Source: a virus
Lineage: Duplodnaviria; Caudoviricetes
Strand: one strand, 5' to 3'
Length of the DNA: 26,394 nt
Virus record (IMG/VR): IMGVR_UViG_3300028925_005553
Span: 1-26,394 of that record
Shown: one piece after another, positions 14-23,704 of the stretch
Numbering within the stretch: the stretch's first letter is position 1
Layout: every line of letters starts with the position of its first letter
Notes under the pieces: model-generated
Databases searched by the model: none
Told to the model about the DNA's origin: nothing
Seen by the model: only the letters and a program-made list of their open reading frames with translations
Made by a program: the position numbers and the translations under genes

Positions 14-274
14 TCATACCACTAACCCGTTTTTAAATGTTTCTTTAAATTGTCTTATTATAGTATTCTGTCCAGATATTACTCCCAGATTAAATAGAGC
101 TTTCTCACTGCCAGACATAGTGTTTCCGATATCCTTTGCATTAAAACTCGTTACTCTGGCATTGCTAACGGCAACATATAAATCATATATTGCTTGTTGT
201 TGTTGTGGTTTAAGTCCTTTAAAAAATAGTTCTACATTTGATGTGGTCGGTGATGGTTTTTTATCTTGTGTCAT
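14..274 (-). CDS. Hypothetical early phage protein (86 aa)
   Basis: ORF with an AGGAGAG Shine-Dalgarno (about 282-288) upstream of the ATG, on the same strand as the early cluster. No recognisable motif. Confidence 0.75.
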   Translation of the reverse strand: MTQDKKPSPTTSNVELFFKGLKPQQQQAIYDLYVAVSNARVTSFNAKDIGNTMSGSEKALFNLGVISGQNTIIRQFKETFKNGLVV

Positions 275-474: not shown

Positions 475-1539
475 CTATACTGCCAATGACTCTAATGTTG
501 ACCATGCCTGACTATCCAAAGCATTACGTACTTGTATTTCTCTTTCTTTCTGGACATTAGCTTTCTGGCTACCTTTCCTGCCCATTGATATTTCTTTCCA
601 CTCCCCTTTATCATTTTGAGACTCGTATGTTTCATCAGTGTGAGTACTCCAATGAGTCATAGCATTATATAAAGCCCAGATAGTGTTGCCTAAACTAGCT
701 TGCTCCTGCTGAAAGCGATACATAAGGTAGTCTGATAGCCTAGCATTGATTAGCTTAGGGTCTACATGGTTACTATCCTTAGATAATGCTAAGGTGTCCA
801 TAGTTTTGCTTTCTTTTCTACAGATAGAGTTGACCAGAAATTGCACTGCCTGCTCATCTGTTATTTTAGTGTTGCTCCAGAGTTGGAACTTTTCAGATTG
901 ATTGGTGAAGACATCAAGAGTGTTAGCAATTTTAGACAAGGCGGAACTAACATTTAACCCTGCGGTATGCTTGCGGTTTTCATGGTAGAACTTCTGACCA
1001 CCAAACACTAGAGTATTTAAGCAAAGGCTACGGTATGCACCCGTAAAGGTTTGGAATGACCAAGCACCGTCTAATGAATTAAAGATATCAGAACGTAGGC
1101 ATACTTCATCACCGTCTCTGACCTTCATGGTATGATCCAGAAAGTGTACAGTTCTTCTGGCTTTTGCTCCGTTATCCCATGTTTGATCGGTTACTTGTAC
1201 AGCGGACTTTCCAATGTCGCTTTCTAGTAGCTTTTTAGTGTGTTGCTTGTACAGATCAATATGCGGAATTGTCTTGTATCTTACAGAGTGGTTGCCAAGA
1301 AACATGCCAGTATCAGAACGAATGATTGCTTTCTTTTTAGGGGCAAGCATACTTATTTCTTCTTTATCTGCATTGGTATAGAAATAATGTAGATCAGTTT
1401 CCTGTATACCAAAGTCAAACATAGACATGTCATTGAGATTGTCATGTGTATGAGTTTCTGGCAAAGTATGAGTAGAAGTACCCATTGCTGTGTCTACAGC
1501 TATTTTTGGTTTATCGGTTGTCATTAAATCGTAAGGCAT
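475..1539 (-). CDS. DUF932 family phage/plasmid protein
   Basis: Motifs AIIRSDTGMFLG..SVRYK.IPH, IFNSLDGAWSF...GAYR.LCLN.L, RKHT and GNTIWALYNAMTHW.TH match DUF932-like proteins as I recall them. AGGAG SD present. Confidence 0.8.
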   Translation of the reverse strand: MPYDLMTTDKPKIAVDTAMGTSTHTLPETHTHDNLNDMSMFDFGIQETDLHYFYTNADKEEISMLAPKKKAIIRSDTGMFLGNHSVRYKTIPHIDLYKQHTKKLLESDIGKSAVQVTDQTWDNGAKARRTVHFLDHTMKVRDGDEVCLRSDIFNSLDGAWSFQTFTGAYRSLCLNTLVFGGQKFYHENRKHTAGLNVSSALSKIANTLDVFTNQSEKFQLWSNTKITDEQAVQFLVNSICRKESKTMDTLALSKDSNHVDPKLINARLSDYLMYRFQQEQASLGNTIWALYNAMTHWSTHTDETYESQNDKGEWKEISMGRKGSQKANVQKEREIQVRNALDSQAWSTLESLAV

Positions 1540-1564
1540 GTTTTTTCTCCTATTGTGTTAAGTT

Positions 1565-1593
1565 ATTATAAAAAGTGGTTCTCCCACTGTACA
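1565..1593 (-). promoter_or_regulatory. Putative sigma70-type promoter for the DUF932-like gene (TGTACA-N17-TATAAT)
   Basis: Perfect TATAAT at 1570-1565 with TGTACA at 1593-1588 exactly 17 bp upstream, in an intergenic gap about 25 nt before the start codon. Confidence 0.65.
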
Positions 1594-1627
1594 TATAGTT
1601 TCATAGTTATTCTGTACATGCAATAGT

Positions 1628-1804
1628 TTATTTATTTTTTATTTCTTCTAATACTTTTAATGTCTGTACAGCGGATTTCTCACTGGAGTGCAAAGTAAAA
1701 AGTTTGTCCTCCACCACATTTCGTATGGCATAACCATCTTCATGGACTATAATAACATAGGTAGGTTCGGTTGACATTATTTTAGCTGACAATTTATCAC
1801 TCAT
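1628..1804 (-). CDS. Hypothetical protein (58 aa, MSDKLSAK...)
   Basis: Start re-assigned to ATG 1804, which overlaps the stop of the upstream gene in a translational-coupling pattern. Confidence 0.65.
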   Translation of the reverse strand: MSDKLSAKIMSTEPTYVIIVHEDGYAIRNVVEDKLFTLHSSEKSAVQTLKVLEEIKNK

Positions 1805-2015
1805 AATATCTATTCCACGACTCGTTGACAAAATCGTACAGACTATTCTCGCTGTACTCATCACCTATAGTAAGATCCTTATACTTATCGGTTGACAAAA
1901 GGTGGATAGCCTTTGACAAAATCTCAAAGAAATCTCTCCCTTGCTTGACAAATTCCTCTACCTCATGTTGAAAAGCCATTTCCATATCCAGAATATCATT
2001 GGTTAGCTTGTTCAT
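1797..2015 (-). CDS. Hypothetical acidic protein (72 aa)
   Basis: GGGGA SD, overlaps both neighbours by a few codons, D/E-rich. Confidence 0.7.
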   Translation of the reverse strand: MNKLTNDILDMEMAFQHEVEEFVKQGRDFFEILSKAIHLLSTDKYKDLTIGDEYSENSLYDFVNESWNRYYE

Positions 2016-2184
2016 GGTGTTCCCCCATTTTTATACGTTTCTTCCATTTATAATTTCTTACTATCTTGCGTACCCAATCTGTATTTGTAGTTCTTCTGTC
2101 TACAAACATACCAACAATCGTGTCCATAGATTTGTTATCATCTACTGCTTTGTGAATTTTATTAATTACTTTATATTCTATCAT
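1996..2184 (-). CDS. Hypothetical basic protein (62 aa, MIEYKVINK...), possibly DNA-binding
   Basis: Perfect AGGAGG SD at 2196-2191 before ATG 2184. K/R-rich. Confidence 0.7.
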   Translation of the reverse strand: MIEYKVINKIHKAVDDNKSMDTIVGMFVDRRTTNTDWVRKIVRNYKWKKRIKMGEHHEQANQ

Positions 2185-2713
2185 GGTGTTCCTCCTGTAC
2201 AACCTTATAAGACTCTTTTAAATACCACATTGGCATATCCCTTGACTTCTCCCATTTAGCTATGTCTTTCTTATCGTTGACGTAGTACTGCCTGTATGCC
2301 CTAACAGCATTGTTATGTATACGCAAATAGCTACATTTATATTCCTCTGGCATACATTGTGGGTGAGGTGTTGTTAAATAGTTATCAAAACTAAAGTTTC
2401 TTGGAGATGGATAAGATATATCCATGATAACTTGCTGACATTTATGTATTTTGTTATACCTCCTAGTGTACTCAAAGCATAACTCCATACCGTGATGCCA
2501 AAGCCAATTATAATTATCCATACTATCTCCTGCCCATAGTGTACAGGGGTGGTTTTTGTGTGCTTCTTTATAGGGTACTTTATCTCCTAATCCATACCTA
2601 TACCATACAGAGCAAAGCATTTGTGCCGTCTCTAGTGGCATCTTGACAACATGCTTATCACATTGCATTTGTGCTGATGTAATAGGGCATTCGTCTAATA
2701 CAAATATGTTCAT
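2171..2713 (-). CDS. Pyrimidine dimer DNA glycosylase / endonuclease V-like protein
   Basis: N-terminus MNIFVLD.CP..SAQ..CDKHVVKM.LE.AQML, plus H.NHPCT.W, EYT.RY.K.H, PQCMP.EYK and AYR.YY..DK, characteristic of this phage family. Confidence 0.85.
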   Translation of the reverse strand: MNIFVLDECPITSAQMQCDKHVVKMPLETAQMLCSVWYRYGLGDKVPYKEAHKNHPCTLWAGDSMDNYNWLWHHGMELCFEYTRRYNKIHKCQQVIMDISYPSPRNFSFDNYLTTPHPQCMPEEYKCSYLRIHNNAVRAYRQYYVNDKKDIAKWEKSRDMPMWYLKESYKVVQEEHHDRI

Positions 2714-2997
2714 TTGTACAGCACTCCCAATTGAGACAGTATATTTAATGCTTGTATACTTAACTCCTGTACTTTATGTACTGTTATCCAATCATTATTA
2801 TAATCTTCATAGGTATTAGTATCTTCGTTAAAGTTTTCTTCCATGTAATCATCTTCACCTGTATACGTTTCAAGTATCATATCTTTATTCGTAATAGACT
2901 TAGCATCTTCATAGTGTGCTATACTATAGTTATTAAACCATGAATACTCAAAATATTCAGAGTCCCCAGATTTTATTTTAAATGTTACAAATAGCAT
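2710..2997 (-). CDS. Hypothetical acidic, aromatic-rich protein (95 aa, MLFVTFK...)
   Basis: GAGGA SD before ATG 2997, with an ATGA overlap into the next gene. 18 D/E versus 6 K and 0 R. Confidence 0.75.
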   Translation of the reverse strand: MLFVTFKIKSGDSEYFEYSWFNNYSIAHYEDAKSITNKDMILETYTGEDDYMEENFNEDTNTYEDYNNDWITVHKVQELSIQALNILSQLGVLYK

Positions 2998-2998
2998 A

Positions 2999-3187
2999 TC
3001 AATGTCCTCTCGGTGGTTGTAATTTATCATTCTCTTTTGATACACCAAAGTCTACTGTATATATCCACACAGCACTATCCTCATCAACTTTTGTTACTTT
3101 ATAAAGTTTCTTCTCTACTATATCTCTAAATTCTACTACAGGGCAAGTGTCAAGCCAATCCATAAATGTTTTCTGTGCATCTTTCAT
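2999..3187 (-). CDS. Hypothetical protein (62 aa)
   Basis: TAATG coupling to the upstream gene and a GAGGAG SD. F.DWLDTCP motif. Confidence 0.7.
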   Translation of the reverse strand: MKDAQKTFMDWLDTCPVVEFRDIVEKKLYKVTKVDEDSAVWIYTVDFGVSKENDKLQPPRGH

Positions 3188-3363
3188 TAGCTATTCTCCT
3201 CTTCTTCTATTTCTCTCAGCCAGTCATTAAAGACATTATCTACATGGTTAGGCATATCCTCCGTAAGTGGTACAGACTTAGGATTGTCTGACCACTCTAC
3301 TAATATTGTGTACCCAACTATGTGCCTATCTGTTGTCGGTATTGTATTTATATCTCTACTCAT
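3187..3363 (-). CDS. Hypothetical protein (about 58 aa, MSRDINTIP...)
   Basis: GGAGGAG SD at about 3377-3371. Start re-assigned from the ORF track. Acidic C-terminus. Confidence 0.7.
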   Translation of the reverse strand: MSRDINTIPTTDRHIVGYTILVEWSDNPKSVPLTEDMPNHVDNVFNDWLREIEEEENS

Positions 3364-3673
3364 TGTCATACTCCTCCCCTTCACTATAGGACTGATTGTT
3401 TAAATCCTCCTCTTGACCCTTCTTATAAAACGAAGCTTCTGTAGAAGGTGCATCTCCTGTATAGACAGTTCCTTGTTCTTCTTCTGTTTCCCATTTTTCC
3501 ATTTGTGATAACAATTCTTTGGCAAATTCTTTTCTTCCGTTCAGGTAGTAATCACTAAACAGAGCATCTTCCTGTCCTACAGTGCTAGGATCGGTGTTGT
3601 CTACCACTTCCTGTAGATAGTCTTTGACTTTCTGTACTAGCTGATTAGCTAAATCATCTGGATTACCTCTCAT
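3356..3673 (-). CDS. Hypothetical highly acidic protein (105 aa)
   Basis: TGATG coupling and a GAGGA SD. 26 D/E versus 9 K/R. Confidence 0.75.
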   Translation of the reverse strand: MRGNPDDLANQLVQKVKDYLQEVVDNTDPSTVGQEDALFSDYYLNGRKEFAKELLSQMEKWETEEEQGTVYTGDAPSTEASFYKKGQEEDLNNQSYSEGEEYDNE

Positions 3674-3834
3674 CAGGCCTTCCTCTTCTGTTCGGTTATA
3701 TGTACAGAACCATTCTTTATCTTAACGTCTATTCTTTTTCCCTTACTTAAATAGTGGCCAATTCTTTCGTTCATCTTAATCATATCCTGTTCAGTCTGTA
3801 CAGCAATGACTTCATGTATTTTAGTTCTTTTCAT
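3673..3834 (-). CDS. Hypothetical protein (53 aa, MKRTKIHE...)
   Basis: AAGGAG SD at 3846-3841 before ATG 3834. The longer ORF-track start lies inside the terminator/promoter region. Confidence 0.7.
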   Translation of the reverse strand: MKRTKIHEVIAVQTEQDMIKMNERIGHYLSKGKRIDVKIKNGSVHITEQKRKA

Positions 3835-3867
3835 AGTGTTCTCCTTTTCTACAATAATCCTTTCACA

Positions 3868-3897
3868 ATTATAAAACATTGTCAACCCCTTAGACAA
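3868..3897 (-). promoter_or_regulatory. Putative promoter (TTGTCT-N18-TATAAT, with an internal TTGACA at 3885-3880)
   Basis: Minus strand reads ttgtctaaggggttgacaatgttttataat, immediately after a terminator and upstream of a strong SD. Confidence 0.45.
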
Positions 3898-3931
3898 AAA
3901 AAAAGAGAGCAATGGGAATTAACTCTCTTTT
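3896..3931 (-). terminator. Putative intrinsic terminator
   Basis: Inverted repeat aaaagagag (3901-3909) / ctctctttt (3923-3931) with a 13-nt loop, running into a 9-T tract on the minus strand, downstream of the 5208-4036 gene run. Confidence 0.7.
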
Positions 3932-4035
3932 CTCTTATTTATTATGTACAGGTAACTTATCGGAAAGTAGCTACCTTTCAAGGATATTATTTAATTGACA
4001 ATCCTTATCTTTCATCAACCCTGTACAAAGTCTTT

Positions 4036-4338
4036 TTACAAAGAAACTGGTATACTCCTTTCAGTATCCTCCGACAAGGGTGTTTCTCCGTACTCTCCTT
4101 CTTCTAGTCGGTAGTGATAGACACCACCTAGCCACTTGCCAATGACATTTCTTCTACCGTAGCTTTGTTTTCGTAAAGACCTTATCCCTGCTGACGTTCC
4201 AGTTTCAAGGTAACCGATTGTTTTTGCCACACCTTGTACAGTGTGCCATCTTCTATCAGACATAACATCAAGTATTAGTGGGATCATTCCCTTTCTTCTA
4301 TGGTAAACTTTTTTTTCCTGTACATCTTCAGTCATCAT
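4036..4338 (-). CDS. Putative winged helix-turn-helix DNA-binding protein (about 100 aa)
   Basis: ILDVMSDRRWHTVQGVAKTIG...TGTSAGIRSLRK..YG...GGVYHYRL has the spacing of a phage wHTH. Start re-assigned behind a GGAAGGA SD. Confidence 0.7.
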   Translation of the reverse strand: MMTEDVQEKKVYHRRKGMIPLILDVMSDRRWHTVQGVAKTIGYLETGTSAGIRSLRKQSYGRRNVIGKWLGGVYHYRLEEGEYGETPLSEDTERSIPVSL

Positions 4339-4690
4339 TATCATTTCCTTCCCAAGCACTGGGGTCATCTGATCTAACTAAATCTTTGTAATAGGCTCGT
4401 ATAACATCTCCTTTACTTTCTCCGTACTCTATAGTTTGACTTTGGTGCATTAGATTAGACTCTTCCACTACAGTATCATAGGCTTTATCAAGTTTGCTAA
4501 TATCAGAATAGGTAAGATGGTCTACTCCACTATCTTGTATGTCTGATACAATAGACTTTACTCGGTTGACAAGTTCTAACTGAGCATCTGTAATAATAGG
4601 CACTTCTAACTTTTTGTTTTTGGCCATGTCTTCCTCCGCTTTTATTTTTAACTCAGTCTCTAACCAAGTAATGAATTTACCCTCTGACAT
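4328..4690 (-). CDS. Hypothetical protein (120 aa)
   Basis: AAGGAG SD. Acidic and probably helical. No motif recognised. Confidence 0.75.
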   Translation of the reverse strand: MSEGKFITWLETELKIKAEEDMAKNKKLEVPIITDAQLELVNRVKSIVSDIQDSGVDHLTYSDISKLDKAYDTVVEESNLMHQSQTIEYGESKGDVIRAYYKDLVRSDDPSAWEGNDNDD

Positions 4691-4712
4691 AATGTTCTCC
4701 TTGTCAAGTTAT

Positions 4713-5027
4713 TTATTTTATATCTACCAAAGAGTAGATGTTTCCTGTATTGCCAACAAACCTTTTTATAAGTTTATTGCCACATTTTATCTCTACAAGG
4801 GTATTAAGATTTATATTTCGGTAGCCACCACTCGCCATATCAAATACTGTTAAGTACCGAATATGGTCGTTGACATTAATGCCACCCTTGAGGTGTTTCT
4901 TAACTCCCAGTTTACAATTCATTTCCCTAACCTCGCCATTCTTTTTGACAAACTTAGCTTTAAATATTTTCTGCCCTACAGTGCGTTTAATTACTGGAGT
5001 TACCAGTGCTTCAGTGTATAGTGTCAT
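4713..5027 (-). CDS. WYL_2 / Sm-like SH3 beta-barrel protein (about 104 aa)
   Basis: F..KFVKKNGEVREMNCKLGV...GG...YLTVFDM..GGYRNINL.TL pattern. Start re-assigned to ATG 5027 after a GAGGAG SD. Confidence 0.7.
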   Translation of the reverse strand: MTLYTEALVTPVIKRTVGQKIFKAKFVKKNGEVREMNCKLGVKKHLKGGINVNDHIRYLTVFDMASGGYRNINLNTLVEIKCGNKLIKRFVGNTGNIYSLVDIK

Positions 5028-5208
5028 CTTCGTTCTCCTCCTCCTCCGAGTTAAATTCAATGGCCAATGTCATGTACAGACCAGCTAATGTATTTATTAT
5101 TACCCCTATCATATCAACCTTAGATATTCCTAGTAACACATATTTATTGTATAATTCAAGTAACTCTTTAATAAACCCTTCAGTTACCTTTATATTAGGT
5201 TCTTCCAT
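5011..5208 (-). CDS. Hypothetical protein (65 aa), first gene of the leftward unit
   Basis: AAGGA SD. Hydrophobic central helix (MIGVIINTLAGLYMTLAI) and an acidic tail that encodes the next gene's SD. Confidence 0.65.
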   Translation of the reverse strand: MEEPNIKVTEGFIKELLELYNKYVLLGISKVDMIGVIINTLAGLYMTLAIEFNSEEEENEDDTIH

Positions 5209-5233
5209 ATATGTTTCCTTATAAGTTTAATTA

Positions 5234-5262
5234 TAAGTAGGCCTTACAAAATTTCCTGTCAA
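5234..5262 (-). promoter_or_regulatory. Leftward promoter TTGACA-N17-TACTTA
   Basis: Perfect -35 at 5262-5257 and a -10-like TACTTA at 5239-5234. A TATAAT also lies at 5235-5230. Confidence 0.65.
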
Positions 5263-5277
5263 GTACTTTTTTTTATA

Positions 5278-5306
5278 TTGACATAGTTTTTACAAAAAGG
5301 TACTAG
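5278..5306 (+). promoter_or_regulatory. Rightward promoter TTGACA-N17-TACTAG for the replication operon
   Basis: Perfect -35 at 5278-5283, a 17-bp spacer, then TACTAG at 5301-5306, upstream of the primase AAGGAG SD. Confidence 0.65.
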
Positions 5307-5328
5307 TAATGGAGAGAAGGAGAATACT

Positions 5329-6111
5329 ATGGTTGGAGAGACTGATGTTGCTACATTTGTTAAGGCACTATCTATACCCACTGATGAAACTTACAGAGGC
5401 AGTTGCCCTGTTTGTCATCATCAAAATACTTTCAATGTTACTAATAGTTCTGGCAGGTTGCTGTATAATTGCTACCATGCTGACTGTTCAGTTGGGGGTA
5501 CTACAAAAACAGGCGATCTTATTCAAACATCGTCTAGGTCAAAAAATCAAACACCTCAGAAGATAGATCTTTCTGTATATAATAAACAGTGGGTAGGACT
5601 AGACCGCAGTCAAAGAGTCGTTGACTACCTAAAGTCTGTACAAGCTTACCATGCTTACAAGAATAGATTTGCTGACATTCGCTACGATGTTAAGGAGGAC
5701 AGGTGTGTCTTTCTTGTATACAAAGACAAGACATTGGTAGATGCGGTTGGTAGATCGCTGACAAATTCTAAACCAAAATGGAAAAGGTACGCATCGTCTC
5801 GTGTGCCGTTTGTGACAAAAAACCAAAGTGACAATCTTGTAATTGTAGAGGACTGTGCTTCGGCTTGTGCATTGACATTTGCTAATGTACAGGGAATGGC
5901 TCTTATGGGTACAAGTTTGTTGACAGAGTATTTAAAATATATTAAGCATTATAGCCGAGTTACCATTGCACTAGATAAAGATGCTTCAAAAAAGGCAATG
6001 AAAATGGTACATGAACTGTCTATCCATGTACAGACAAAGTTAGTGTTACTAGACAGAGACATAAAAAGGTGGAGTACAGAACAAATAAGGGAGAAGTTTA
6101 ATGTCACTTGA
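5329..6111 (+). CDS. DNA primase (Zn-binding domain plus TOPRIM)
   Basis: CPVC...CYHADC zinc motif, DAVGRSL...PKWKRY, and TOPRIM motifs LVIVEDCASA, ALMGT and IALDKDA. Confidence 0.9.
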   Translation: MVGETDVATFVKALSIPTDETYRGSCPVCHHQNTFNVTNSSGRLLYNCYHADCSVGGTTKTGDLIQTSSRSKNQTPQKIDLSVYNKQWVGLDRSQRVVDYLKSVQAYHAYKNRFADIRYDVKEDRCVFLVYKDKTLVDAVGRSLTNSKPKWKRYASSRVPFVTKNQSDNLVIVEDCASACALTFANVQGMALMGTSLLTEYLKYIKHYSRVTIALDKDASKKAMKMVHELSIHVQTKLVLLDRDIKRWSTEQIREKFNVT

Positions 6112-7312
6112 GAAACAAATATTATCAGCATGTTTATCCAATGAGTTTTATAAAGATACTGCGGAGGTTGTATCTAAAGAAATGTTTGCCAATGGTGTGG
6201 GGACAATTTTTGACACCATCAGTTTTGCCCAACAGAAGTACGAGAGTGATTTAGATGTCAATACCCTGATACAGCTACACAGGAATAAGTATCCTGCACT
6301 GCCAGAGTCATCAAGAGAACCCATAGAAGATGTTATACGAGAGCTTGGTAAGTTCATGCCAAGTAGCAAAATCATACTAAAAGATTTAATCATTGACTTC
6401 TGGAAGAAAGATAAGGCTCACAAGATTAGTGATCTATCGGCTGACATTTGGTTAGGCAACAGTGACGACTTTACTTCATTGAGAACTTTGGTTGACACGG
6501 CTATAGATAATACACCTGAAGAGGAAGGAAACTATCAAGAAGTGAAAGATGATGTAAAGGATTATGTAGAGGGGTGGGATCAAGGGTTTGAATTTAAGTT
6601 TGAGTTACAATCTTTGGCTGACAGAATAAGCGGTGCAGGTAGAGGAAACTTAGGGATTATATTTGCTAGGCCAGAGACAGGAAAGACAACTTTCTGTACA
6701 TACTTAGTTGCAGAGTACATTAAGCAGGGATTTAAGGTGGCATACTTTGCTAACGAAGAACCCGGAAGGTTAGTCAAAGGTAGAGTATTCTCTGCGTACC
6801 TTAAACGATCCATTGATGAGATGAAAACAAACTTAGAAGACTCTATGGATGTATACAAGAAAGAGATAGAACCTAACTTTAAATTGTTAGAGGGTAGAGG
6901 CATTACTTTATTAGAGATTGAGAAATTTATTGACATTCATAAACCTGATGTGGTAATGGTGGATCAGCTAGATAAGGTGGCTATCAGTGGTAACTTTGCC
7001 AGAACGGATGAAAAGCTAAAAGCTCTGTACGAGGGGGCAAGAACAATGGCTAAGAAACAACAGGTTTTACTCTGGTCAGTATCACAAGCATCTTATGATG
7101 CACAAGGTAGACAAGAGGTAGATTTTAGTATGTTGGAAAATAGTAGGACAGGAAAGGCAGCGGAGGCTGACATTATTATAGGTATAGGAAAGAACTATGG
7201 TGAGGAAGAGGATTACATACGACATCTTTGTGTATCTAAAAATAAACTTAATGGGTGGCATGGTACAGTAACCTGCTCCATTGACATATACAGAGCGAGG
7301 TATGAATTGTGA
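6101..7312 (+). CDS. dnaB: DnaB-like (SF4) replicative helicase
   Basis: Walker A ARPETGKT, NEE, Walker B VVMVDQLD, VSQA, SRTGKAAEAD and KNKLNG. Confidence 0.92.
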   Translation: MSLEKQILSACLSNEFYKDTAEVVSKEMFANGVGTIFDTISFAQQKYESDLDVNTLIQLHRNKYPALPESSREPIEDVIRELGKFMPSSKIILKDLIIDFWKKDKAHKISDLSADIWLGNSDDFTSLRTLVDTAIDNTPEEEGNYQEVKDDVKDYVEGWDQGFEFKFELQSLADRISGAGRGNLGIIFARPETGKTTFCTYLVAEYIKQGFKVAYFANEEPGRLVKGRVFSAYLKRSIDEMKTNLEDSMDVYKKEIEPNFKLLEGRGITLLEIEKFIDIHKPDVVMVDQLDKVAISGNFARTDEKLKALYEGARTMAKKQQVLLWSVSQASYDAQGRQEVDFSMLENSRTGKAAEADIIIGIGKNYGEEEDYIRHLCVSKNKLNGWHGTVTCSIDIYRARYEL

Positions 7313-7536
7313 TATTAAAAGCCGATGGGTTTGATGGTGCAATACTAGGTTTAGGTAGAAGGTGTGGACAGCCAGATCTGTTAGTTTACGATGCTGACAA
7401 ATGTGTAGCCATACTTATGAAAGACGGAATGACAGACGAAGAAGCTATGGAGTATTTTGAATTTAATGTGGTAGGATCATGGATGGGTGAAGGAACACCT
7501 ATCTTTCTGTACAGAGGATTGGAGGATGAAGAATGA
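7309..7536 (+). CDS. Conserved hypothetical phage protein (75 aa)
   Basis: GTGA overlap start. ADGFD.AI.G...VYD..K....L...GM..EEA.EYFEFNV.G.WMGE.TPIF resembles a widespread small aquatic-phage family. Confidence 0.85.
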   Translation: MILKADGFDGAILGLGRRCGQPDLLVYDADKCVAILMKDGMTDEEAMEYFEFNVVGSWMGEGTPIFLYRGLEDEE

Positions 7537-9632
7537 TAACCGTTCTTGACATAGAAACAACATATAAAAAAGATGATGCAGGTAAGCTAGACCTTGATCC
7601 TTATACAGGAAACATGTTAGTGTCTGTGGGGTACAGTGCTGTAGGTTCTGATATAATAGCTCCCTTTACAGAGAAAAAGATTTATCGCCCTGACAGTGAG
7701 GGGTATCTCTGCTTCACTCACACAGAAAAAGAACCGACAGAGAATGGCTTTGCTATACTGCAAAAAGTTCTGGATAATACAGAAGTTTTAGTGGGGCATA
7801 ACATCAAGTTTGACCTCAAGTGGCTCCTTGCTTGTAACTTTACCTATACAGGGAAACTATACGACACGATGATAGCTGAGTATGTTATACACGGTGGGGA
7901 TAAAGTTGCTCTGTCTTTGTCTGAGTCAGCTAAGAGATATGATTTAGATGAGAAACGTACCGACTTAACTGCACAGTACATGAAAGATGGTGTATCTTTT
8001 GACTACATTCCTTGGGATATTGTAGAGGAGTATGGCAGGGCTGATGTGGAAGTTACAAAACAATTGTACACTGCACAGCAACAGGCAGTAAAAGATGGCC
8101 TTGCACCTACTGTAAGTTTAATGAATGAGATGTGTCAGGTTCTTACCGAGATGGAAAACACCGGTATGAAAGTCAGTGTGAAAGCACTCACAGATATTAG
8201 AGAACAATATGGTAATGAATACAATGAGTTACATGAGTTTCTTGAGAGAGAAGTTAAACGTACAATGGGAGATACTCCTGTAAATTTAGACAGCCCAGAG
8301 GATAGGTCTAAAGTCTTGTACAGCAGAGGTGTAACAGATAAAAAATATTGGGCGAGTACATTCAATTTAGGCTATGAGCAATACGGCAGTACAAAGAGAA
8401 AGAAAAGACTGCGTAAACATAGCAAAGATGATTTTATTAAAAAGGTAAGAACTTATACAAAGGTACTACCCCACACCGAGTCCCACCAATGTGGTTCTTG
8501 TAGAGGGAGAGGATACTTCAACCCCCTTAAAAAAGATGGCACGGTGGGTAAAGCTAAAAGAATTTGTAAGACTTGCAATGCTGATGGTGTAGTGTTTAAA
8601 TCTACAGGACAGGTGGGTGGATTCAAACTTGTACCTAGAGATGCTTATGATGTTAGTACACATGGATTTAAAACAGACCGACCAACTTTAGAGAGCCTAG
8701 CTATGTCTGCTAACGATGAGCAAAAGAAATTTATCAGTGCCTATATAAAGTACAATGCCATAGGTACTTATCTGAGAACATTTGTGGATGGTATAGAGAG
8801 GGGCTTAGATAGTAAAGGATTTATACACCCACACTATATGCAATGTGTTACGGCTACAGGAAGACTATCATCTCGTAATCCAAACTTTCAGAACATGCCA
8901 AGAGGTACAACCTTTCCTGTAAGGGCTTGTGTAATATCTCGTTGGGAAGGTGGAAAGATATTGGAGGGAGATTACAGTCAGTTAGAATTTAGAGTGGCAG
9001 GGTTTCTTGCACAGGACAAACAGGTATATGCTGATGTGCGAAAAGGTTTTGATGTGCATACCTTTTCTGCTGAGGCTTTAGGAGTTTCTAGGCAAGAAGC
9101 AAAAGCACATACATTTAAACCATTATACGGAGGTACTTATGGAACCGAAAAAGAGGTTGCGTACTACGATCTTTTCAAGGCCAGATATCCAGATGTTGCT
9201 AAGTGGCACGTCTCTTTACAAGACGAAGCAATTAAGACAAAAAAGATCACCCTTCCTTCTGGTAGGATTTATCATTTTCCTCACGTTCGTAGGAACTTTT
9301 ACGGTGGTTCTACACATGCTACCGCCATAAAGAATTATCCTGTACAGGGATTTGCTACTGCAGACTTGCTCCCGCTTGCTCTTATAAACTTACGAAAAGT
9401 TTTGTTTGACAACGACATGCAGTCTGTAGTATGTAATACAGTACATGATTCAATTGTCCTTGATGTCTTTCCACAAGAGGAAAGTAAGGCGATTGAAATT
9501 TTAGCGGAGTCTATGTTGAGTATAAAATCTGAAGCTAAGAAACGATACAATGTTGACTATGACATGCCTGTTGGTATTGAATTGAAAATTGGTAAAGATT
9601 GGCTTGATATGGATGAAGTTTTAACAATCTAA
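7533..9632 (+). CDS. polA: DNA polymerase family A with a 3'-5' exonuclease and a DnaJ-type Zn-finger insert
   Basis: Exo I DIET, Exo II GHNIKFD, Exo III YGRAD, TATGRLSS.NPNFQN, motif A DYSQLEFR, motif B RQEAKAHTFKPLYG, motif C VHDS. Insert CGSCRGRG...CKTCNADG. Confidence 0.97.
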   Translation: MITVLDIETTYKKDDAGKLDLDPYTGNMLVSVGYSAVGSDIIAPFTEKKIYRPDSEGYLCFTHTEKEPTENGFAILQKVLDNTEVLVGHNIKFDLKWLLACNFTYTGKLYDTMIAEYVIHGGDKVALSLSESAKRYDLDEKRTDLTAQYMKDGVSFDYIPWDIVEEYGRADVEVTKQLYTAQQQAVKDGLAPTVSLMNEMCQVLTEMENTGMKVSVKALTDIREQYGNEYNELHEFLEREVKRTMGDTPVNLDSPEDRSKVLYSRGVTDKKYWASTFNLGYEQYGSTKRKKRLRKHSKDDFIKKVRTYTKVLPHTESHQCGSCRGRGYFNPLKKDGTVGKAKRICKTCNADGVVFKSTGQVGGFKLVPRDAYDVSTHGFKTDRPTLESLAMSANDEQKKFISAYIKYNAIGTYLRTFVDGIERGLDSKGFIHPHYMQCVTATGRLSSRNPNFQNMPRGTTFPVRACVISRWEGGKILEGDYSQLEFRVAGFLAQDKQVYADVRKGFDVHTFSAEALGVSRQEAKAHTFKPLYGGTYGTEKEVAYYDLFKARYPDVAKWHVSLQDEAIKTKKITLPSGRIYHFPHVRRNFYGGSTHATAIKNYPVQGFATADLLPLALINLRKVLFDNDMQSVVCNTVHDSIVLDVFPQEESKAIEILAESMLSIKSEAKKRYNVDYDMPVGIELKIGKDWLDMDEVLTI

Positions 9633-9650
9633 ACTAAAGGAGAAATTATA

Positions 9651-10505
9651 ATGTCAAACGATGTTGTAACGAATAAAGCAAATGTAGCACCTTCACTGAA
9701 AGATATGTCAGTGGCAGAACTTGCTACACTCACCGGTCAAGAAGTAAGTAACAACGAAGGCCAGAGTCTTCCTCGCCTAGCCATAAACCATGCAGAAGAG
9801 GACAACGATGGTAAAACTATTCCACGAGGACAGTTTTCTTTAAAACTCCCGGATGGGGTAACTGCCTATGCAAAAGAAGCCCACCTAAGAATATTCTACA
9901 GGCTATTTACTTATAGTAGGTGGGATGTAGAGCAGGGTTCTTTTGGTTGCCAAACTATACAGACTACAAGTCTTGGTGCTGACTTCTACGATACAGAAGG
10001 TAATATGCGTTGTGGCAGACTCACTAAAGATGAAGCATCTGGCCTTGCTAAGGATAGTCCAGAGATGAATTTACACAAGAGTGTGAAGTGTAACCAGATC
10101 CTGTACAACACAGTACAGCTAGTTGATCCTGTAGATGCTGATGGTCATAAGGTAGTGATGCCTGATGAAGTTCCATCTGTTTGGTACATCCGTGGTTCCA
10201 GTTTCATACCTGTAAGTGATCACATTAAAATGATTGCTAGACAGAAACAAATCATGTGTACTGTTGTGAACAAAGCAACTACAGCTAGAAGAAAAATGGC
10301 TGGCAACTCTTACTATGTTCCTGTAATGGCTACACTTAAAACTGTAGAAATAAAGGATACAGACCAAGAGCTAATGACTAAGTTCTTTGAAACTAAAGAA
10401 GCCATCAACAATAAAGTGATGGGACAGTGGAGAGAAGCTAAAGAAAAGAATGCTAAACTTGGAGACTTAAATGACTTCGGTGACGTTCTTTCTGCTACAG
10501 GATAG
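9651..10505 (+). CDS. Probable single-stranded DNA-binding protein (284 aa)
   Basis: Position between the polymerase and exonuclease, a strong AAAGGAG SD, the LPRLAIN motif, a beta-rich core and a mildly acidic tail. Function is inferred from synteny only. Confidence 0.55.
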   Translation: MSNDVVTNKANVAPSLKDMSVAELATLTGQEVSNNEGQSLPRLAINHAEEDNDGKTIPRGQFSLKLPDGVTAYAKEAHLRIFYRLFTYSRWDVEQGSFGCQTIQTTSLGADFYDTEGNMRCGRLTKDEASGLAKDSPEMNLHKSVKCNQILYNTVQLVDPVDADGHKVVMPDEVPSVWYIRGSSFIPVSDHIKMIARQKQIMCTVVNKATTARRKMAGNSYYVPVMATLKTVEIKDTDQELMTKFFETKEAINNKVMGQWREAKEKNAKLGDLNDFGDVLSATG

Positions 10506-10508
10506 GTT

Positions 10509-11414
10509 ATGTTTAGCCCTATCTTAATGAAAGTACAGGGATTACTAGATCGTGCCACTAAAGAAGGCATTGATCTAGACCCCCAACTTTTAGAAAACTT
10601 TAAAAATGACTGTGGGAATGCCCTAGTTAAGCAATTGTCTCGTGGCAAAAGCGATTACTCTTTACGTATGAGTGGCTTGGGCAGACCTATGTGTCAACAG
10701 TGGCATGATAAAAATGGATCTCCTAAAGAGGTGCAGTATAATTCCATCATGCGTTTTTTATTTGGAGATATAATAGAGGCTATCTCTATGGTAGTTTTAA
10801 AATCTGCTGGAGTAAATATAGAATCCGAACAAGAGAGAGTTAAATTAGATTTAGATGTGTGTGAACTTAATGGTACACTAGATGTTGTCATAGATGGCAA
10901 AGTGTGGGATATAAAATCAGCATCCCCCTATGCTTTTTCTAAGAAGTTTGGTGGAGAGTTCGGTGGGTACAATAAAGTAAAAGAAGATGACACCTTTGGA
11001 TATATCATGCAAGCACACCTGTACAGCAAAGCAAAGAACATGCCTTTTGGTGGGTGGATTGTTGTAGATAAAGCTTCGGGTGAGTGGGCTGTTTGTGAAG
11101 CACCAGACCAACAAGAAGAAGACTGTGCAGAGCAGATAGCAAAAGCTAAAAAGACTGCTAAAATAATGTTGGCAGATAAACCGTTGAAGAAAGAATTTAA
11201 AGATAAAGAAGAAACTTTCCGTGTACAAAGCGGGCCAAGGAAAGGTGAGATAGTTGCTACAGGAAACAGAGTAATGCACTCCGTGTGTGGTTTCTGTGAT
11301 TATAGAGCCCAGTGTTGGCCTGACTCACAGTTGCACAAGAAAGTAGGAACACAAGCAACCCAACGACCATTTGTTTGGTATACAAAATTAAAGAAAAGAG
11401 AGATTGTGTTGTGA
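10509..11414 (+). CDS. Cas4-like PD-(D/E)XK exonuclease
   Basis: LRMSGLGRPMCQQW, GTLD...WDIKSAS, Y..Q..LY and a C-terminal CGFCDYRAQCW (Fe-S-type cysteines). Confidence 0.88.
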   Translation: MFSPILMKVQGLLDRATKEGIDLDPQLLENFKNDCGNALVKQLSRGKSDYSLRMSGLGRPMCQQWHDKNGSPKEVQYNSIMRFLFGDIIEAISMVVLKSAGVNIESEQERVKLDLDVCELNGTLDVVIDGKVWDIKSASPYAFSKKFGGEFGGYNKVKEDDTFGYIMQAHLYSKAKNMPFGGWIVVDKASGEWAVCEAPDQQEEDCAEQIAKAKKTAKIMLADKPLKKEFKDKEETFRVQSGPRKGEIVATGNRVMHSVCGFCDYRAQCWPDSQLHKKVGTQATQRPFVWYTKLKKREIVL

Positions 11415-11803
11415 TATACTTGTCTACAGAAATAACCATAGGAGATAGTTATGTAAATGAAAGTGTATACTTTGCCTACCAAGAATGTGATAAACTTTTT
11501 GGTGGGGATAGTATCATAAAAGAATTACGTAATAGACCTAATGGTATACCCATAAGAATGTCGCAGACATTTGACCTAGACGAGCCTTGGGGTGATGACA
11601 GGCTTGAAGAACATATGGAGAAAATAGATTATGATTTAGATATATTAGCTATAAAAGCAAAGAAACGAGATAGTTTAGTAGTTTTACACTGGACAGGAAT
11701 AGAAGAACACCGTAGCATTCTAAAACAGAGTGCACCTAAAACTTTTACGTATTTTAATGATAAGTTTGAGGAAATAATATTTAAAAACTTGCCGAGGGTA
11801 TAA
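11411..11803 (+). CDS. Hypothetical protein, possibly a degenerate macro-domain-like fold (130 aa)
   Basis: GTGA overlap start at 11411. R..PNGIPI, IDYDL, VV....GI and L...APK.F.Y resemble a phage macro-like family. Confidence 0.6.
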   Translation: MIYLSTEITIGDSYVNESVYFAYQECDKLFGGDSIIKELRNRPNGIPIRMSQTFDLDEPWGDDRLEEHMEKIDYDLDILAIKAKKRDSLVVLHWTGIEEHRSILKQSAPKTFTYFNDKFEEIIFKNLPRV

Positions 11804-12174
11804 TGGTACTAAGACATCACGGCTACCGATCAGACTTTGAGTTGTCTATCGCTGTAGCTTTCAATAGAAATAATATAAAATTTAAATATGAATCGGAGAA
11901 AATAGATTATGTTAGGCATTCTACTTATAATCCTGACTTTACTATAGATGGTAAAGATTTCCTTATAGAGGCAAAGGGTCTTTTCTCTACAGCAGACAGA
12001 GGTAAACACCTGTTGATTAAGAAACAACACCCAGAAATTGATTTAAGATTTTTGTTTATGAGAGCAAGTAATAAACTTTATAAGGGTTCTAAAACTACAT
12101 ATGCTGGGTGGTGTGAACGGTACGGTTTTAAATGGTGCGAAGGATTTTTACCACAAGAGTGGTTGGATGAATAG
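11803..12174 (+). CDS. Endonuclease I (T7 gp3-like Holliday junction resolvase)
   Basis: YRSDFE, YE...I.Y, YNPDF, IEAKG.F...DR.KHLLIK.QHP..D.RF.F, SKTTYA.WCE..GF.W and P.EW. Confidence 0.93.
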   Translation: MVLRHHGYRSDFELSIAVAFNRNNIKFKYESEKIDYVRHSTYNPDFTIDGKDFLIEAKGLFSTADRGKHLLIKKQHPEIDLRFLFMRASNKLYKGSKTTYAGWCERYGFKWCEGFLPQEWLDE

Positions 12175-12517
12175 GGAAGATTTAAAAGGTTACAGAGATA
12201 GACTTCCCTCGGGCATGTATGTTATACTGCTTAAACCTGATGGGGAGGATGGGGTTAGCCTTGCTGTAATAGACACACACAATGTTGGCGATAATCATGT
12301 AGATCTATCTTATATTCTTTCTAGGGGTGTGTTGTCTCTATTGGCCAATGATATGGATATGATAAAGGAAAGAGGGCAAAGTGTTATATTGGAGGAAATG
12401 AGAGACGAAACTAAACTTCCTATAATTGATAGTCTTATGGACAGGACAGAACCTACCGCACGTATACAAAAAGATAATATTGTGTCTATATTTGGAGATG
12501 ATGATGATCAGCAGTAG
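12167..12517 (+). CDS. Hypothetical protein (116 aa)
   Basis: Start re-assigned to ATG 12167, overlapping the endonuclease stop. Ends in a DNIVSIF motif. Confidence 0.7.
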   Translation: MNREDLKGYRDRLPSGMYVILLKPDGEDGVSLAVIDTHNVGDNHVDLSYILSRGVLSLLANDMDMIKERGQSVILEEMRDETKLPIIDSLMDRTEPTARIQKDNIVSIFGDDDDQQ

Positions 12518-12785
12518 TTCAAAAAGAAAGAAAAAAGAATTTAATAGCCACAGTGATATGATTAAGCAATCTGTAAAAGGAAAAGATAGGCAGGTAGGTG
12601 GTGACCATTATATAGATTTTAAAATTATGCCCATTGAATACATTTCAAAAAATAAACTTGACTTCCTTGAGGGAAATATTGTAAAGTATATATCTCGTCA
12701 TAGAAAAAAGAACGGGGCAGAGGACATAAGAAAAGTCATACATTATGCAGAATTAATATTAGAATTAGAATATGGAGAAGATTAG
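12504..12785 (+). CDS. DUF3310 (SaV-like / T7 gp1.7-related putative nucleotide kinase) protein
   Basis: QVGGDHY, PIEYI, F.EGNIVKY.SR...KNG.ED..K..HY. GGAG SD at 12494-12497. The exact ATG (12498, 12501 or 12504) is uncertain. Confidence 0.88.
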   Translation: MISSSSKRKKKEFNSHSDMIKQSVKGKDRQVGGDHYIDFKIMPIEYISKNKLDFLEGNIVKYISRHRKKNGAEDIRKVIHYAELILELEYGED

Positions 12786-14717
12786 ATGGCATCATTACTT
12801 GGAGGAAATTATTTACCAACAGAATATCAGTCGTTTATACATATGTCTAGATATTCTCGGTGGTTAGAAAAAGAAGGCAGAAGAGAAGGTTGGAGTGAGA
12901 CAGTAAATAGGCTTGTTTCATTCTTTCGTCAAAAGGTAGAAGGAGTTGATGAAAAATCTTGGGAGGATGTAGAAGAAGCTATACTATCTCTTCAAGTCAT
13001 GCCTAGTATGAGAGCACTTATGACTGCTGGTAAAGCTTTAGAGAGAGAGAATATTGCTGGCTATAACTGTTCGTATATACCGATAGATAGTCCAAGAGCT
13101 TTTGATGAAGTTTTGTACATCCTTATGAATGGCACTGGAGTAGGGTTCTCTGTAGAGAGACAGTACGTTGATAAGTTGCCTACTGTGCCTGATGTAGAGT
13201 TTGAACATACAGAGGATGTGATATCCGTTGTGGATTCTAAAGAAGGTTGGTCTAAAGCTTTTAGAGATTTGGTATCCTACCTTTACACAGGGAGAGTACC
13301 TAAAATTAATGTGTCTAAGGTTAGGCCGGCTGGTGCAAGACTTAAAACATTTGGTGGTAGGGCCAGTGGGCCCCAACCCCTTATAAATCTCTTTGACTTT
13401 ACTATTCTTAAATTTAAAGATGCAAGAGGGAGAAAGCTTTCCTCTATGGAATGTCATGATATTGTCTGTAAGACTGGAGATGTTGTAGTAGTTGGTGGTG
13501 TACGTAGGTCAGCCCTTATATCTCTATCTAATCTATCCGACCAACGGATACGTACAGCTAAAACAGGAGATTGGTGGACTACTAATCCAGAGAGAACAAT
13601 GGCTAATAACTCTGTTGCTTATACAGAGAAGCCTGATGCCGGTATGTTTATGAAAGAGTGGCTGTCCCTCTACGAAAGTAAATCTGGTGAGAGGGGTATC
13701 TTTAATAGGACATCTGCTCAAAAGAAAGCTGCTGAGAATGGTAGACGAGATGCTAACTGGGAGTTTGGTACTAATCCTTGTAGTGAAATAATACTACGAC
13801 CTAATCAGTTCTGTAACTTAACAGAAGTGGTAGTACGTTCTGGGGATACAATGGCCTCCCTTACAAGAAAGGTACAGATTGCAACCTTGCTAGGTACAAT
13901 ACAATCTACTCTTACTGACTTTACTTACTTACGAAAGAGATGGCAGAATAATACAGAGGAAGAGAGATTACTTGGTGTATCTCTTACTGGTATTATGGAT
14001 AGTACTTTGATGAATGGTAAAGAGGGTGGGTTAGAAAAAAGATTAGAAACTTTAAGGGGTGTTGCTGTAGAGGCCAATAGTTATTGGGCACTCAAGTTTG
14101 GTATAAACCAAAGTACAGCCATTACTTGTGTTAAGCCTTCTGGTACGGTTAGTCAGTTAGTAGATAGTGCTAGTGGTATACATGCAAGACACAACCCTTA
14201 TTACATACGAACAGTACGAGGAGATAACAAAGACCCCCTCACTGAATTTTTGATTAACTCTGGCATACCTAATGAGCCAGAAATTAAAGCTAACGAAGAA
14301 TCTAAAGATATAACCGTGTTCTCCTTTCCGATGAAAGCACCCATAGGTTCTGTTTGTAGAAACGATATGTCTGCAATAGAACAGCTTGAGTTATGGAAGA
14401 TTTATGCAAAGCACTGGTGTGAGCATAAGCCTTCTGTTACCATTTCGGTAAAGGAAAATGAATGGGTGCCTGTTGGTGCGTGGTGTTGGGAAAATTTTGA
14501 ACATCTAAGTGGTGTCTCCTTTCTCCCCTTTTCCGACCACACGTACATACAGGCTCCCTATCAAGATATAACTGAGAAAGAATATAAGAAACTTGTAAAA
14601 AAAATGCCCGCAACTTTAGATTGGAAAAAGTTACAGGACTTTGAAAAGGAAGATAATACGAAGGGATCACAGGAATTAGCCTGTACTGCCGGAGTGTGTG
14701 AGTTGGTGGATATATAG
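12786..14717 (+). CDS. nrdJ: Class II (adenosylcobalamin-dependent) ribonucleotide reductase, monomeric RTPR-like
   Basis: MPSMRAL, YNCSY, GTGVGFS, VGGVRRSA, catalytic TNPCSEI, FCNL.E, TCVKPSGTVS and a C-terminal CTAGVC. No beta-subunit gene nearby. Confidence 0.95.
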   Translation: MASLLGGNYLPTEYQSFIHMSRYSRWLEKEGRREGWSETVNRLVSFFRQKVEGVDEKSWEDVEEAILSLQVMPSMRALMTAGKALERENIAGYNCSYIPIDSPRAFDEVLYILMNGTGVGFSVERQYVDKLPTVPDVEFEHTEDVISVVDSKEGWSKAFRDLVSYLYTGRVPKINVSKVRPAGARLKTFGGRASGPQPLINLFDFTILKFKDARGRKLSSMECHDIVCKTGDVVVVGGVRRSALISLSNLSDQRIRTAKTGDWWTTNPERTMANNSVAYTEKPDAGMFMKEWLSLYESKSGERGIFNRTSAQKKAAENGRRDANWEFGTNPCSEIILRPNQFCNLTEVVVRSGDTMASLTRKVQIATLLGTIQSTLTDFTYLRKRWQNNTEEERLLGVSLTGIMDSTLMNGKEGGLEKRLETLRGVAVEANSYWALKFGINQSTAITCVKPSGTVSQLVDSASGIHARHNPYYIRTVRGDNKDPLTEFLINSGIPNEPEIKANEESKDITVFSFPMKAPIGSVCRNDMSAIEQLELWKIYAKHWCEHKPSVTISVKENEWVPVGAWCWENFEHLSGVSFLPFSDHTYIQAPYQDITEKEYKKLVKKMPATLDWKKLQDFEKEDNTKGSQELACTAGVCELVDI

Positions 14718-14869
14718 TGAAGTGTGCTAAACCTATAATAGCTACGGAGGATGCCGGGTTAATTAGGAAAGTTATAGCTTACTACATCAAGTATGCATCA
14801 CCCCCGAATAAAGAAGTAGAAGAAAAACTTCTAAATCTATTTCACAGACTAGGAAGATTGGAAAAATAA
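14717..14869 (+). CDS. Small hypothetical protein (50 aa, MKCAKPIIATEDAGLIRKV...LLNLFHRLGRLEK), absent from the ORF track
   Basis: The GTG overlaps the nrdJ stop and the TAA ends 1 nt before the next ATG, so it fills the gap exactly. Confidence 0.75.
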   Translation: MKCAKPIIATEDAGLIRKVIAYYIKYASPPNKEVEEKLLNLFHRLGRLEK

Positions 14870-14870
14870 G

Positions 14871-15089
14871 ATGGCTGAAGCAAGCCTGTTTGAACTATCC
14901 GTAAAAGTTAACACAGATGGTAAAATAGTAACACAAATCAATTACATAAAAAGAGAAACTCTTACCACCGCCTTAGATACATGGAAAAAGGATTATCCCA
15001 ATACCCATGTACTGGGAGCAGTGGTAGAATATTTAAAGAATGTCGGGCACACTGTAGAGGAAGACGTAGCTAAACTTTGTAGGTCTTAG
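14871..15089 (+). CDS. Hypothetical protein (72 aa), last gene of the replication operon
   Basis: ORF coupled to the upstream gene. Its stop overlaps the stop of the convergent gene. Confidence 0.7.
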   Translation: MAEASLFELSVKVNTDGKIVTQINYIKRETLTTALDTWKKDYPNTHVLGAVVEYLKNVGHTVEEDVAKLCRS

Positions 15090-16036: not shown

Positions 16037-16038
16037 GT

Positions 16039-16275
16039 TTAACTCCTTACCTTTCTAGGTCCGTTGTTGTACATAATACTTCCCCCGTACTTCATTTTTC
16101 GTGTATTGGGGTATTGTTTAACGCCCAAAGGTTCTACGTTAGATAACTCCATTGCATCCACCATTGGTGTAGGCATTTTTACTCGGTCTGTTTCTGTTTT
16201 TGTTGCATTTGGTCTGGCAGACATATCTGCCTTTCCCCCTTCAGCCATATATTTATATGTGTGTTTACCCGGCAT
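16039..16275 (-). CDS. Small basic protein with two GG motifs (78 aa)
   Basis: AAGGAG SD. YMAEGG and KMKYGG motifs. Confidence 0.8.
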   Translation of the reverse strand: MPGKHTYKYMAEGGKADMSARPNATKTETDRVKMPTPMVDAMELSNVEPLGVKQYPNTRKMKYGGSIMYNNGPRKVRS

Positions 16276-23703: not shown

Positions 23704-23704
23704 A

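Follow-up and report, generated by a model that had tools for sequence, protein, structure and literature searches.

A dispersed palindrome under selection in the early and replication genes of a clade of HMO-2011-type marine podoviruses

The virus record IMGVR_UViG_3300028925_005553 (26,394 bases, 48% complete according to CheckV) is analysed here over its whole length, hereafter the window; it is a fragment of an HMO-2011-type marine podovirus in which the palindrome TGTACA is strongly over-represented. We find that this motif is a real, selected DNA signal common to a clade of related phages, and that it is better defined than at first reading. It is enriched beyond what coding explains, has two-fold symmetry, tolerates mismatches in a graded manner, is under purifying selection while its sites turn over, keeps to gene-class boundaries and falls on predicted promoters. 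From sequence we infer three further things, namely that a protein binds the sites, that it does so as a homodimer and that binding affects transcription; the reading that we tentatively prefer is of a selected array of dispersed palindromes, bound by a dimeric protein, which might control transcription of the early and replication genes as one unit. The parts of the window are as follows.

475..15089: motif domain, from the DUF932 gene to the end of the replication arm, with 28 exact TGTACA
14-5208, leftward: early arm of small early genes
5329-15089, rightward: replication arm, with primase, helicase, family A polymerase, exonuclease, endonuclease I and class II ribonucleotide reductase (RNR)
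15086..26365, leftward: virion-gene arm, used as internal control; CTGTACA 1 against 0.6 expected, soft motif mildly raised

An earlier note on this DNA had listed 33 copies of TGTACA, and all 33 coordinates match exactly. This number compares with an expectation of 9.43 +/- 3.36, and none of 100 dinucleotide shuffles reaches it. As had been claimed, the copies occur in different frames, here all three, and also in intergenic DNA (four copies); they fall, moreover, on genes of both strands. The longer word CTGTACA, counted on both strands between 1 and 11.5 kb, is present 30 times where 4.4 are expected. As a null for enrichment within genes we used 2000 within-gene synonymous shuffles, none of which reaches the observed counts in the leftward early genes (TGTACA 12 against 4.8, CTGTACA 14 against 3.9) or from primase to exonuclease (11 against 3.5 and 12 against 2.3, respectively); protein sequence alone is therefore insufficient to explain the excess, in line with the note. 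Its estimate of ten-fold enrichment holds relative to base composition, while relative to synonymous shuffles the excess is 2.5-3-fold for TGTACA and 3.6-5-fold for CTGTACA. Between 11.4 and 15.1 kb the exact word TGTACA is not enriched (1 against 0.7), and the structural block, thought to be at background, is not quite so in the same shuffles (5 against 2.1, p=0.028). The proposed positional grading survives as uneven distribution over the whole window (p=4e-5), not as a gradient within the first 11.5 kb (Kolmogorov-Smirnov p=0.31), so that the domain is better described as a step. Enrichment persisted both under within-gene shuffling and in relatives, the two places where the note had allowed that it might vanish, and its dispersed recognition sequence in early DNA is supported as DNA-level selection that relatives have in common.

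The signal extends beyond six bases. Among sites before 11.5 kb, 25 of 27 have a C before or a G after the hexamer, as against one of the six later sites, and the full motif is a soft 14-bp palindrome, TT(C/T)CTGTACAG(G/A)AA. A palindromic matrix of 9.6 bits, trained by expectation-maximisation (EM) on four relatives with the window left out, holds T-n-T-A-n-A at 91-95% and G at 65%; EM gives a density of about 4 sites/kb in the domain, and the matrix matches 65 times in 1-11.5 kb of the window against 24 times in the last 11.3 kb. In pooled relatives CTGTACAG is 18-fold enriched, several one-base variants are 2.5-5.5-fold enriched and others are at 0. A search over all 10- and 12-bp palindromes places CCTGTACAGG and TCCTGTACAGGA first, both when the window is searched by itself (log10 p -9) and for seven clade loci (log10 p -33), the best null values being -2 to -3; among the 10-bp palindromes tested, CCTGTACAGG was found 169 times against 56 (log10 p -33). 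Other flanks of GTAC are far rarer (AGTACT 4, GGTACC 0), as are other alternating purine-pyrimidine palindromes in 1-11.5 kb (CATATG 0, ATGCAT 0, ACATGT 2). Relative to transcription both orientations are equally enriched, and the signal thus resides on duplex DNA, not RNA: for six clade genomes, pooled and not independent, sense-strand counts are CTGTACA 52/12 and TGTACAG 44/10 in early genes, and 42/9 and 34/9 in replication genes. When spaced dyads of LexA and NtcA type were tested, the only peak was at spacer 0. The LexA SOS box of Gammaproteobacteria is CTGT-N8-ACAG, whereas in the two clades described below the N8 counts are 5 and 2, against 50 and 49 at N0.

The motif is clade-wide. Scoring CTGTACA per locus against a second-order Markov model, we find at least two-fold enrichment in all 46 clade-A and all 32 clade-B loci, with p<0.01 in 70 of the 78, though clade loci are not independent and many are near-identical. 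The same significance is seen in none of 80 HTVC033P-like loci and in one of 78 loci of other lineages (158 outgroup loci). Polymerase identity across clades A and B ranges from 57 to 100%, and the two form one group in a 19-row tree (100/100) as well as in a larger FastTree phylogeny (0.935). Six of seven cultured HMO-2011-type phages have no enrichment, CRP-3 being a mild exception (TGTACA 11 against 4.6, CTGTACA 5 against 2.4), and outgroups carry the same proteins without the motif. A tie between the motif and the flipped, leftward early arm was rejected, as many lineages with the same flipped arm and DUF932 are motif-free.

Selection on the sites is evident from an alignment of 70 clade loci to the window, with the same codons elsewhere serving as control. 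Conservation at synonymous positions in related phages, which the earlier note had put forward as a check, is found at fourfold-degenerate positions within TGTACA, of which 6 of 31 are variable against 16.4 expected (p=2.5e-4). In stretches with unchanged amino acids, each of the 11 relatives compared retains more sites than matched controls would (e.g. 13 of 15 against 8.7). Turnover is extensive nonetheless: 15 of 19 aligned sites in relative G004 are at new positions, distant relatives hold most of their sites elsewhere, and lost sites often turn into the tolerated variants TGTATA or TATACA. The dipeptide Val-Gln, which spells the motif, is raised in early and replication proteins (79 against 44) and not in virion proteins (65 against 72); Leu-Tyr is not raised (69 against 68). 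Selection thus acts on site density, plus a few fixed sites at predicted promoters. Individual sites and the promoters within the window are listed here.

1145..1253: three TGTACA sites within DUF932 (1145, 1196, 1248)
1584..1674: sites 1588, 1613 and 1665, on the predicted promoter of DUF932 or a short way upstream of it; 8/8 aligned loci retain 1588 and 1613
3941..4031: intergenic sites 3945 and 4022, upstream of a predicted promoter at 3880; core kept in 12/12 aligned loci
5229..5310: predicted divergent sigma-70-like promoters between early arm and primase, TTGACA at 5257 (minus strand) and 5278 (plus strand)
9337..9350: site with the highest score (15.0 bits); it overlies the YPVQG motif conserved in the polymerase and is retained in 10/11 relatives

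A site upstream of the A-tract at the DUF932 promoter is present in all four genomes compared.

The left edge of the domain lies inside the early arm, behind a unit of terminal small genes. Four terminal gene families contain no site in 6.9 kb pooled, with 2.9 expected (p=0.055; p=2e-4 against a three-fold rate), and of the 25 families between DUF932 and the far end of the replication arm, both included, 23 are 2.3-6.2-fold enriched. Beyond the terminal genes is a conserved non-coding gap, found in two complete relatives (G001, G002) and in two partial ones spanning the region. Measured from this gap, matrix density is at background for 2 kb, about two-fold up to 18-20 kb, and then mostly background again. 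The gap holds a symmetric sigma-70-like promoter pair, TTGACA-N16-TATA(A/C)T in mirror image (L038:326-393; G001 54033/54071), both members of which are found by a strict pattern in G001, G003 and 11 of 24 DUF932 loci; in a near-identical strain the pair is about 1.6 kb left of the window start. The rightward gap promoter is predicted to transcribe antisense into the leftward early genes. Clade B also has promoters of this type where the early arm adjoins primase. Gene order, together with avoidance of GATC beside the gap in three relatives, suggests that the gap is the genome end: GATC is purged at the gap-side end of G001 (0 against 9.1), G003 (1 against 9.2) and G005 (0 against 7.9). The purged early-arm spans are 54000-55495 plus 1-6000 in G001, 12000-20000 in G003 and 1-4000 in G005; GATC is enriched in the early arm of G009. 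The earlier description of the motif as marking first-entering DNA is wrong in detail, since the terminal small genes are without sites and the physical end is itself deduced.

A second, polar word starts near the left boundary of the palindrome domain.

1771..9412, plus strand: polar word (C/T)TGACA(A/T), 24 on plus against 3 on minus; antisense under early genes, sense under replication genes

Its rightward bias holds in early and replication genes alike (CTGACA 47/0 and 29/7; GCTGAC 23/0 and 22/1). The word is 3.5-34-fold enriched in seven of 12 early families, two-fold in DUF932 and absent from four; it is five-fold in primase, four-fold in helicase, 2.3-fold in polymerase and about one-fold or less thereafter. 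Fourfold sites in rightward copies are conserved (6 of 29 variable against 15.1), and those in leftward copies are not. We rejected cryptic promoters as an explanation, as the word is -35-like but lacks a -10 signal at spacers 15-19, and likewise purging from the virion arm, which is mostly codon-explained (x0.69). In outgroup early arms TGACA runs rightward in L199, L210, L213, L259 and L261, and leftward in L209, L211, L219, L238 and L275. A 53-amino-acid gene in G004 (27682-27843) has five rightward TTGACA in 160 bp.

How might such an array be explained? Sites of about 10 bits that are symmetric and tolerate mismatches are the typical trace of a homodimeric DNA-binding protein. Under domain-wide transcriptional control, a two-subunit DNA-binding protein would dock on CTGTACAG-core palindromes and coat the early and replication block, and the coated block would be repressed or timed in transcription as one unit. 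We prefer this reading because of the gene-class boundaries and the conserved sites on predicted promoters. A number of observations nevertheless weigh against it. Most sites lie inside genes; only in the window do intergenic stretches clearly exceed coding ones in density (7 in 1.1 kb against 9 in 4.0 kb), with G003 showing the reverse (1 in 1.1 kb against 15 in 5.9 kb). No fixed spacing between sites is seen, two- and threefold-degenerate positions have no extra conservation (8 of 18 against 9.9), two early families are not enriched (0.9 and 0), and virion genes are mildly so, large ones being mostly 1-2.7-fold and small ones noisy. Terminal early genes without sites are not predicted by a simple early-gene shut-off. 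Pfam scans detected neither an integrase over cut-off, G002 having one sub-threshold match, nor another sign of lysogeny, and no recognisable DNA-binding gene is common to all motif-bearing genomes. The motif-free terminal genes and the polar word are better accounted for by a function in entry or protection, the main alternative, though a somewhat unlikely one, in which, once the terminal 2 kb had entered and been expressed, a protein on the palindromes, together with the polar TGACA, would ratchet the DNA inward or block an end-loading nuclease. Consistent with this, the domain begins about 2 kb from the gap taken as genome end, GATC is purged at that same end in G001, G003 and G005, TGACA is conserved and keeps one genome direction under both gene orientations, and the gap promoter points rightward into leftward early genes. 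However, the genome end is presumed and contigs continue through the gap, the domain stops on the right where the replication arm does, which fits a transcription class at least as well, GATC is not clearly avoided in the window itself (8 against 12.6), and a palindrome gives no direction.

Other explanations fare less well. The palindromic core, the selection on density and the presence in all frames resemble HIP1, and dense marks at a methyltransferase or phosphorothioate target might shield early DNA in a similar way, but such a self-mark is improbable: the matrix fixes T-n-T-A-n-A and not GTAC, where G reaches only 65%; GTAC in other flanks is rare, as noted above; methylases of the N6/N4 and D12 families (PF01555 and PF02086) are absent from five of five relatives, two of them complete; and methylation is described as scarcely detected in marine podovirus metagenome-assembled genomes (PMC8919816). 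C5 methylases were not seen in Pfam scans of the window and most other G001 proteins, which included no family-specific search. A methylation mark at GTAC/TGTACA, as raised in the earlier note, fits poorly because near-matches without GTAC are also enriched. That the array is a decoy for a host Phd/YefM-type antitoxin or toxin-antitoxin complex is quite improbable. YefM-YoeB operators do have a TGTACA core and Phd operators a GTAC core (PMC1802561), but these are paired 12-13 bp apart, whereas here only four pairs of those within 60 bp have that distance and there is no peak; PF02604 is found neither in the window nor in five of five relatives, and an accessory toxin-antitoxin locus would be an unlikely constant partner across 57-100% polymerase identity. 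Finally, codon or dipeptide bias, mutation bias or avoidance of ultraviolet-sensitive dipyrimidines might produce a motif without function. Many sites fall on Val-Gln or Leu-Tyr codons, and the density difference between early and replication genes is partly protein opportunity. This is very improbable indeed, and largely refuted by the excess that survives synonymous shuffles, the conserved fourfold sites and the outgroups with the same proteins and no motif; the rarity of similar alternating palindromes also speaks against it.

What can be said of the reader of this signal? The genes that bear on this question, with others in the window, are as follows.

14..274, minus strand: last gene of the terminal small-gene unit
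475..1539, minus strand: DUF932 / TIGR03299-like gene, at whose 3' end the motif domain begins on the left; candidate reader
2171-2713: pyrimidine-dimer-glycosylase-like gene (PF03013), in 4/6 clade genomes
3673..3837, minus strand: 54-amino-acid beta-alpha-beta-beta protein, not in G003
4036..4347, minus strand: winged-helix-like protein, assigned by reading the sequence, with no Pfam match; clade A only
4328..4690, minus strand: 120-amino-acid early protein of unknown fold, in 6/6 clade genomes and 0 outgroup loci; candidate reader
7533..9632, plus strand: family A DNA polymerase with DnaJ-like zinc-finger insert, the HMO-2011-type marker

The earlier note had named the winged helix-turn-helix, WYL_2-like and DUF932-like products among its candidates. 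The first is missing from motif-bearing clade-B early arms and cannot be the only reader; the other two, DUF932 and WYL_2, are also present in motif-free lineages, as are TerS and the terminal 124-amino-acid protein. TerS and the 124-amino-acid protein show no covariation with the words discussed below and were set aside. So was the 54-amino-acid protein as a Phd-like reader, having no Pfam or PDB sequence match and being missing from G003; its 76 homologues carry no domain, and for its predicted model (predicted local distance difference test, pLDDT, 81; one helix) Foldseek found nothing at E<=0.001, with none of the matches listed being an antitoxin. DUF932 has 196 homologues; its predicted model, made from five sequences, is unusable (pLDDT 42), and its Atlas matches are DUF932 only. 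A ribbon-helix-helix (RHH)-like gene of 65-77 amino acids, recognised from alignment without a Pfam match, immediately precedes primase in some two dozen outgroup loci (L209:7371-7601 and relatives); it was rejected as a switching reader, its strand being constant across lineages with different words and the gene absent from the window's clade. We lean towards a reader supplied by the host, since no recognisable DNA-binding gene occurs in all motif-bearing genomes. Clades A and B exchange early genes (the 54-amino-acid gene is 98% identical in G001 and G005), an indication that they share hosts, and this is in keeping with a host reader. A phage protein of unknown fold, such as DUF932, the 120-amino-acid protein at 4328-4690 or the terminal 124-amino-acid protein, is nevertheless a serious possibility.

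Among known systems, the motif is most like stoperator arrays or HIP1, yet it fails defining features of stoperators, as it does those of Chi, YefM/Phd operators, LexA boxes and HutC operators. Stoperators of Cluster A mycobacteriophages, bound by the L5 repressor, are likewise many and dispersed, at promoters and elsewhere, and are read by one protein that silences a gene block; they are described as asymmetric 13-mers oriented with transcription, mostly intergenic and bound by a phage monomer in a temperate phage (PMC9283540), unlike the soft, unoriented, mostly intragenic palindrome found here at about 4/kb with neither repressor nor integrase found. HIP1 (GCGATCGC, cyanobacteria) shares an over-represented 8-bp palindromic core conserved in and between reading frames; it is chromosome-wide, 15-300-fold enriched and tied to methylases (PMC5861425), whereas the present motif, scored as a matrix, is 2-6-fold enriched, is largely restricted to a single phage domain and does not strictly require GTAC. 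Terminal Chi clusters of phages LLS and MD8 are similar in that a short word is dense towards one genome end and is read by a host protein, but Chi is asymmetric and polar (20 against 3; PMC12315714). The palindrome is unoriented; only TGACA, near the presumed end, is one-way, and it matches none of the Chi sequences given in PMC12315714. The phage also encodes an exonuclease and an endonuclease itself. YefM-YoeB and Phd-Doc operators, with their TGTACA or GTAC core recognised by a dimer, consist of one pair 12-13 bp apart at one promoter (PMC1802561); here there are dozens of unpaired sites and no Phd/YefM gene. GntR/HutC operators (GTMTAKAC) have the same T-n-TA-n-A skeleton, with conserved centre and variable A/T-rich periphery (PMC4494728), but the outer pair here is C...G (G 4%) and the M position is mostly G.

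Lineages outside the clade have words of their own. G006-G010 and L198-L275 carry AGATAG/TAGATA, GCCGCGAAC, AAACATAC, CGATCA, ATGAAT, AAACCGAC and ACACCA, some of them in the early domain only. AGATAG in G006 is found 47 times in the early domain and 25 times in the late part, which is longer, and its rise too is at DUF932; CGATCA in G009 (14 against 2) and ATGAAT in G010 (21 against 7) behave similarly, while GCGAAC in G007 is spread over the whole record. Tested as palindromes, these words do best in three of 17 non-clade groups (log10 p -9) and are near null in most, and palindromic EM, when run on outgroup lineages, in most cases ended in codon periodicity. As outgroup palindromes are much weaker than that of the window, motif switching is a lead and not a result. 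It would form part of a two-signal address that HMO-2011-type phages would carry behind their terminal genes, a scheme which we consider unlikely: a lineage palindrome would load a dimer and one-way TGACA would be read by a tracking enzyme, the two together timing entry and early expression, with the palindrome switched according to host or reader (CTGTACAG here; TAGATA-type, CGATC-type and others elsewhere).

The placement of the window rests chiefly on its polymerase, which by its sequence is the HMO-2011-type marker as defined in PMC9038755. Its 12 best phage records are all HMO-2011-type (36-45% identity), and PF00684 matches at 314-356 with E=0.003, under cut-off, the first motif being exact and the second having A for the first G. 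Capsid and TerL homologues lie outside the window; in relative G001 the capsid is 64% identical to that of HTVC033P and TerL is present. A GC content of 34-39% and the presence of RNR suggest that the window may belong to HMO-2011-type subgroup X, host unproven (PMC9038755). Its early arm (475-5208) is leftward, opposite to HTVC033P and HMO-2011, as in many uncultured lineages. The polymerase of the window's clade is one fused gene, unlike that of outgroup L198-L275, where exonuclease and polymerase parts are in two frames in 60 of 66 loci with a whole polymerase; the break is at a conserved place, residue ~185-190, with overlapping stop and start in most of seven examples. Neither the window nor 45 of 46 clade-A loci (L001-L046, with one copy in L030) contain TCGA, which is present but reduced in clade B; avoidance of a TCGA-cutting enzyme is the likely cause. 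As to the host itself, a GTDB scan yielded a single unrelated match and cluster names gave none.

HMO-2011-type phages count among the most abundant groups of marine phages known (PMC9038755). In a term search, the main text of that paper was found to mention neither promoters nor termini, palindromes or binding sites of these phages, and our literature search, whose scope took in few subscription papers and no supplements, found no published description of the motif. A selected, clade-wide array of putative binding sites in coding DNA, which shifts amino-acid choice, points to an unrecognised step of host-phage or phage-phage recognition, and the motif is a concrete bait for finding its reader. 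If that reader is a host protein, the motif would provide a means to assign hosts to uncultured lineages; and if the two-signal address is true, the palindrome could act as a host signature for uncultured phages.

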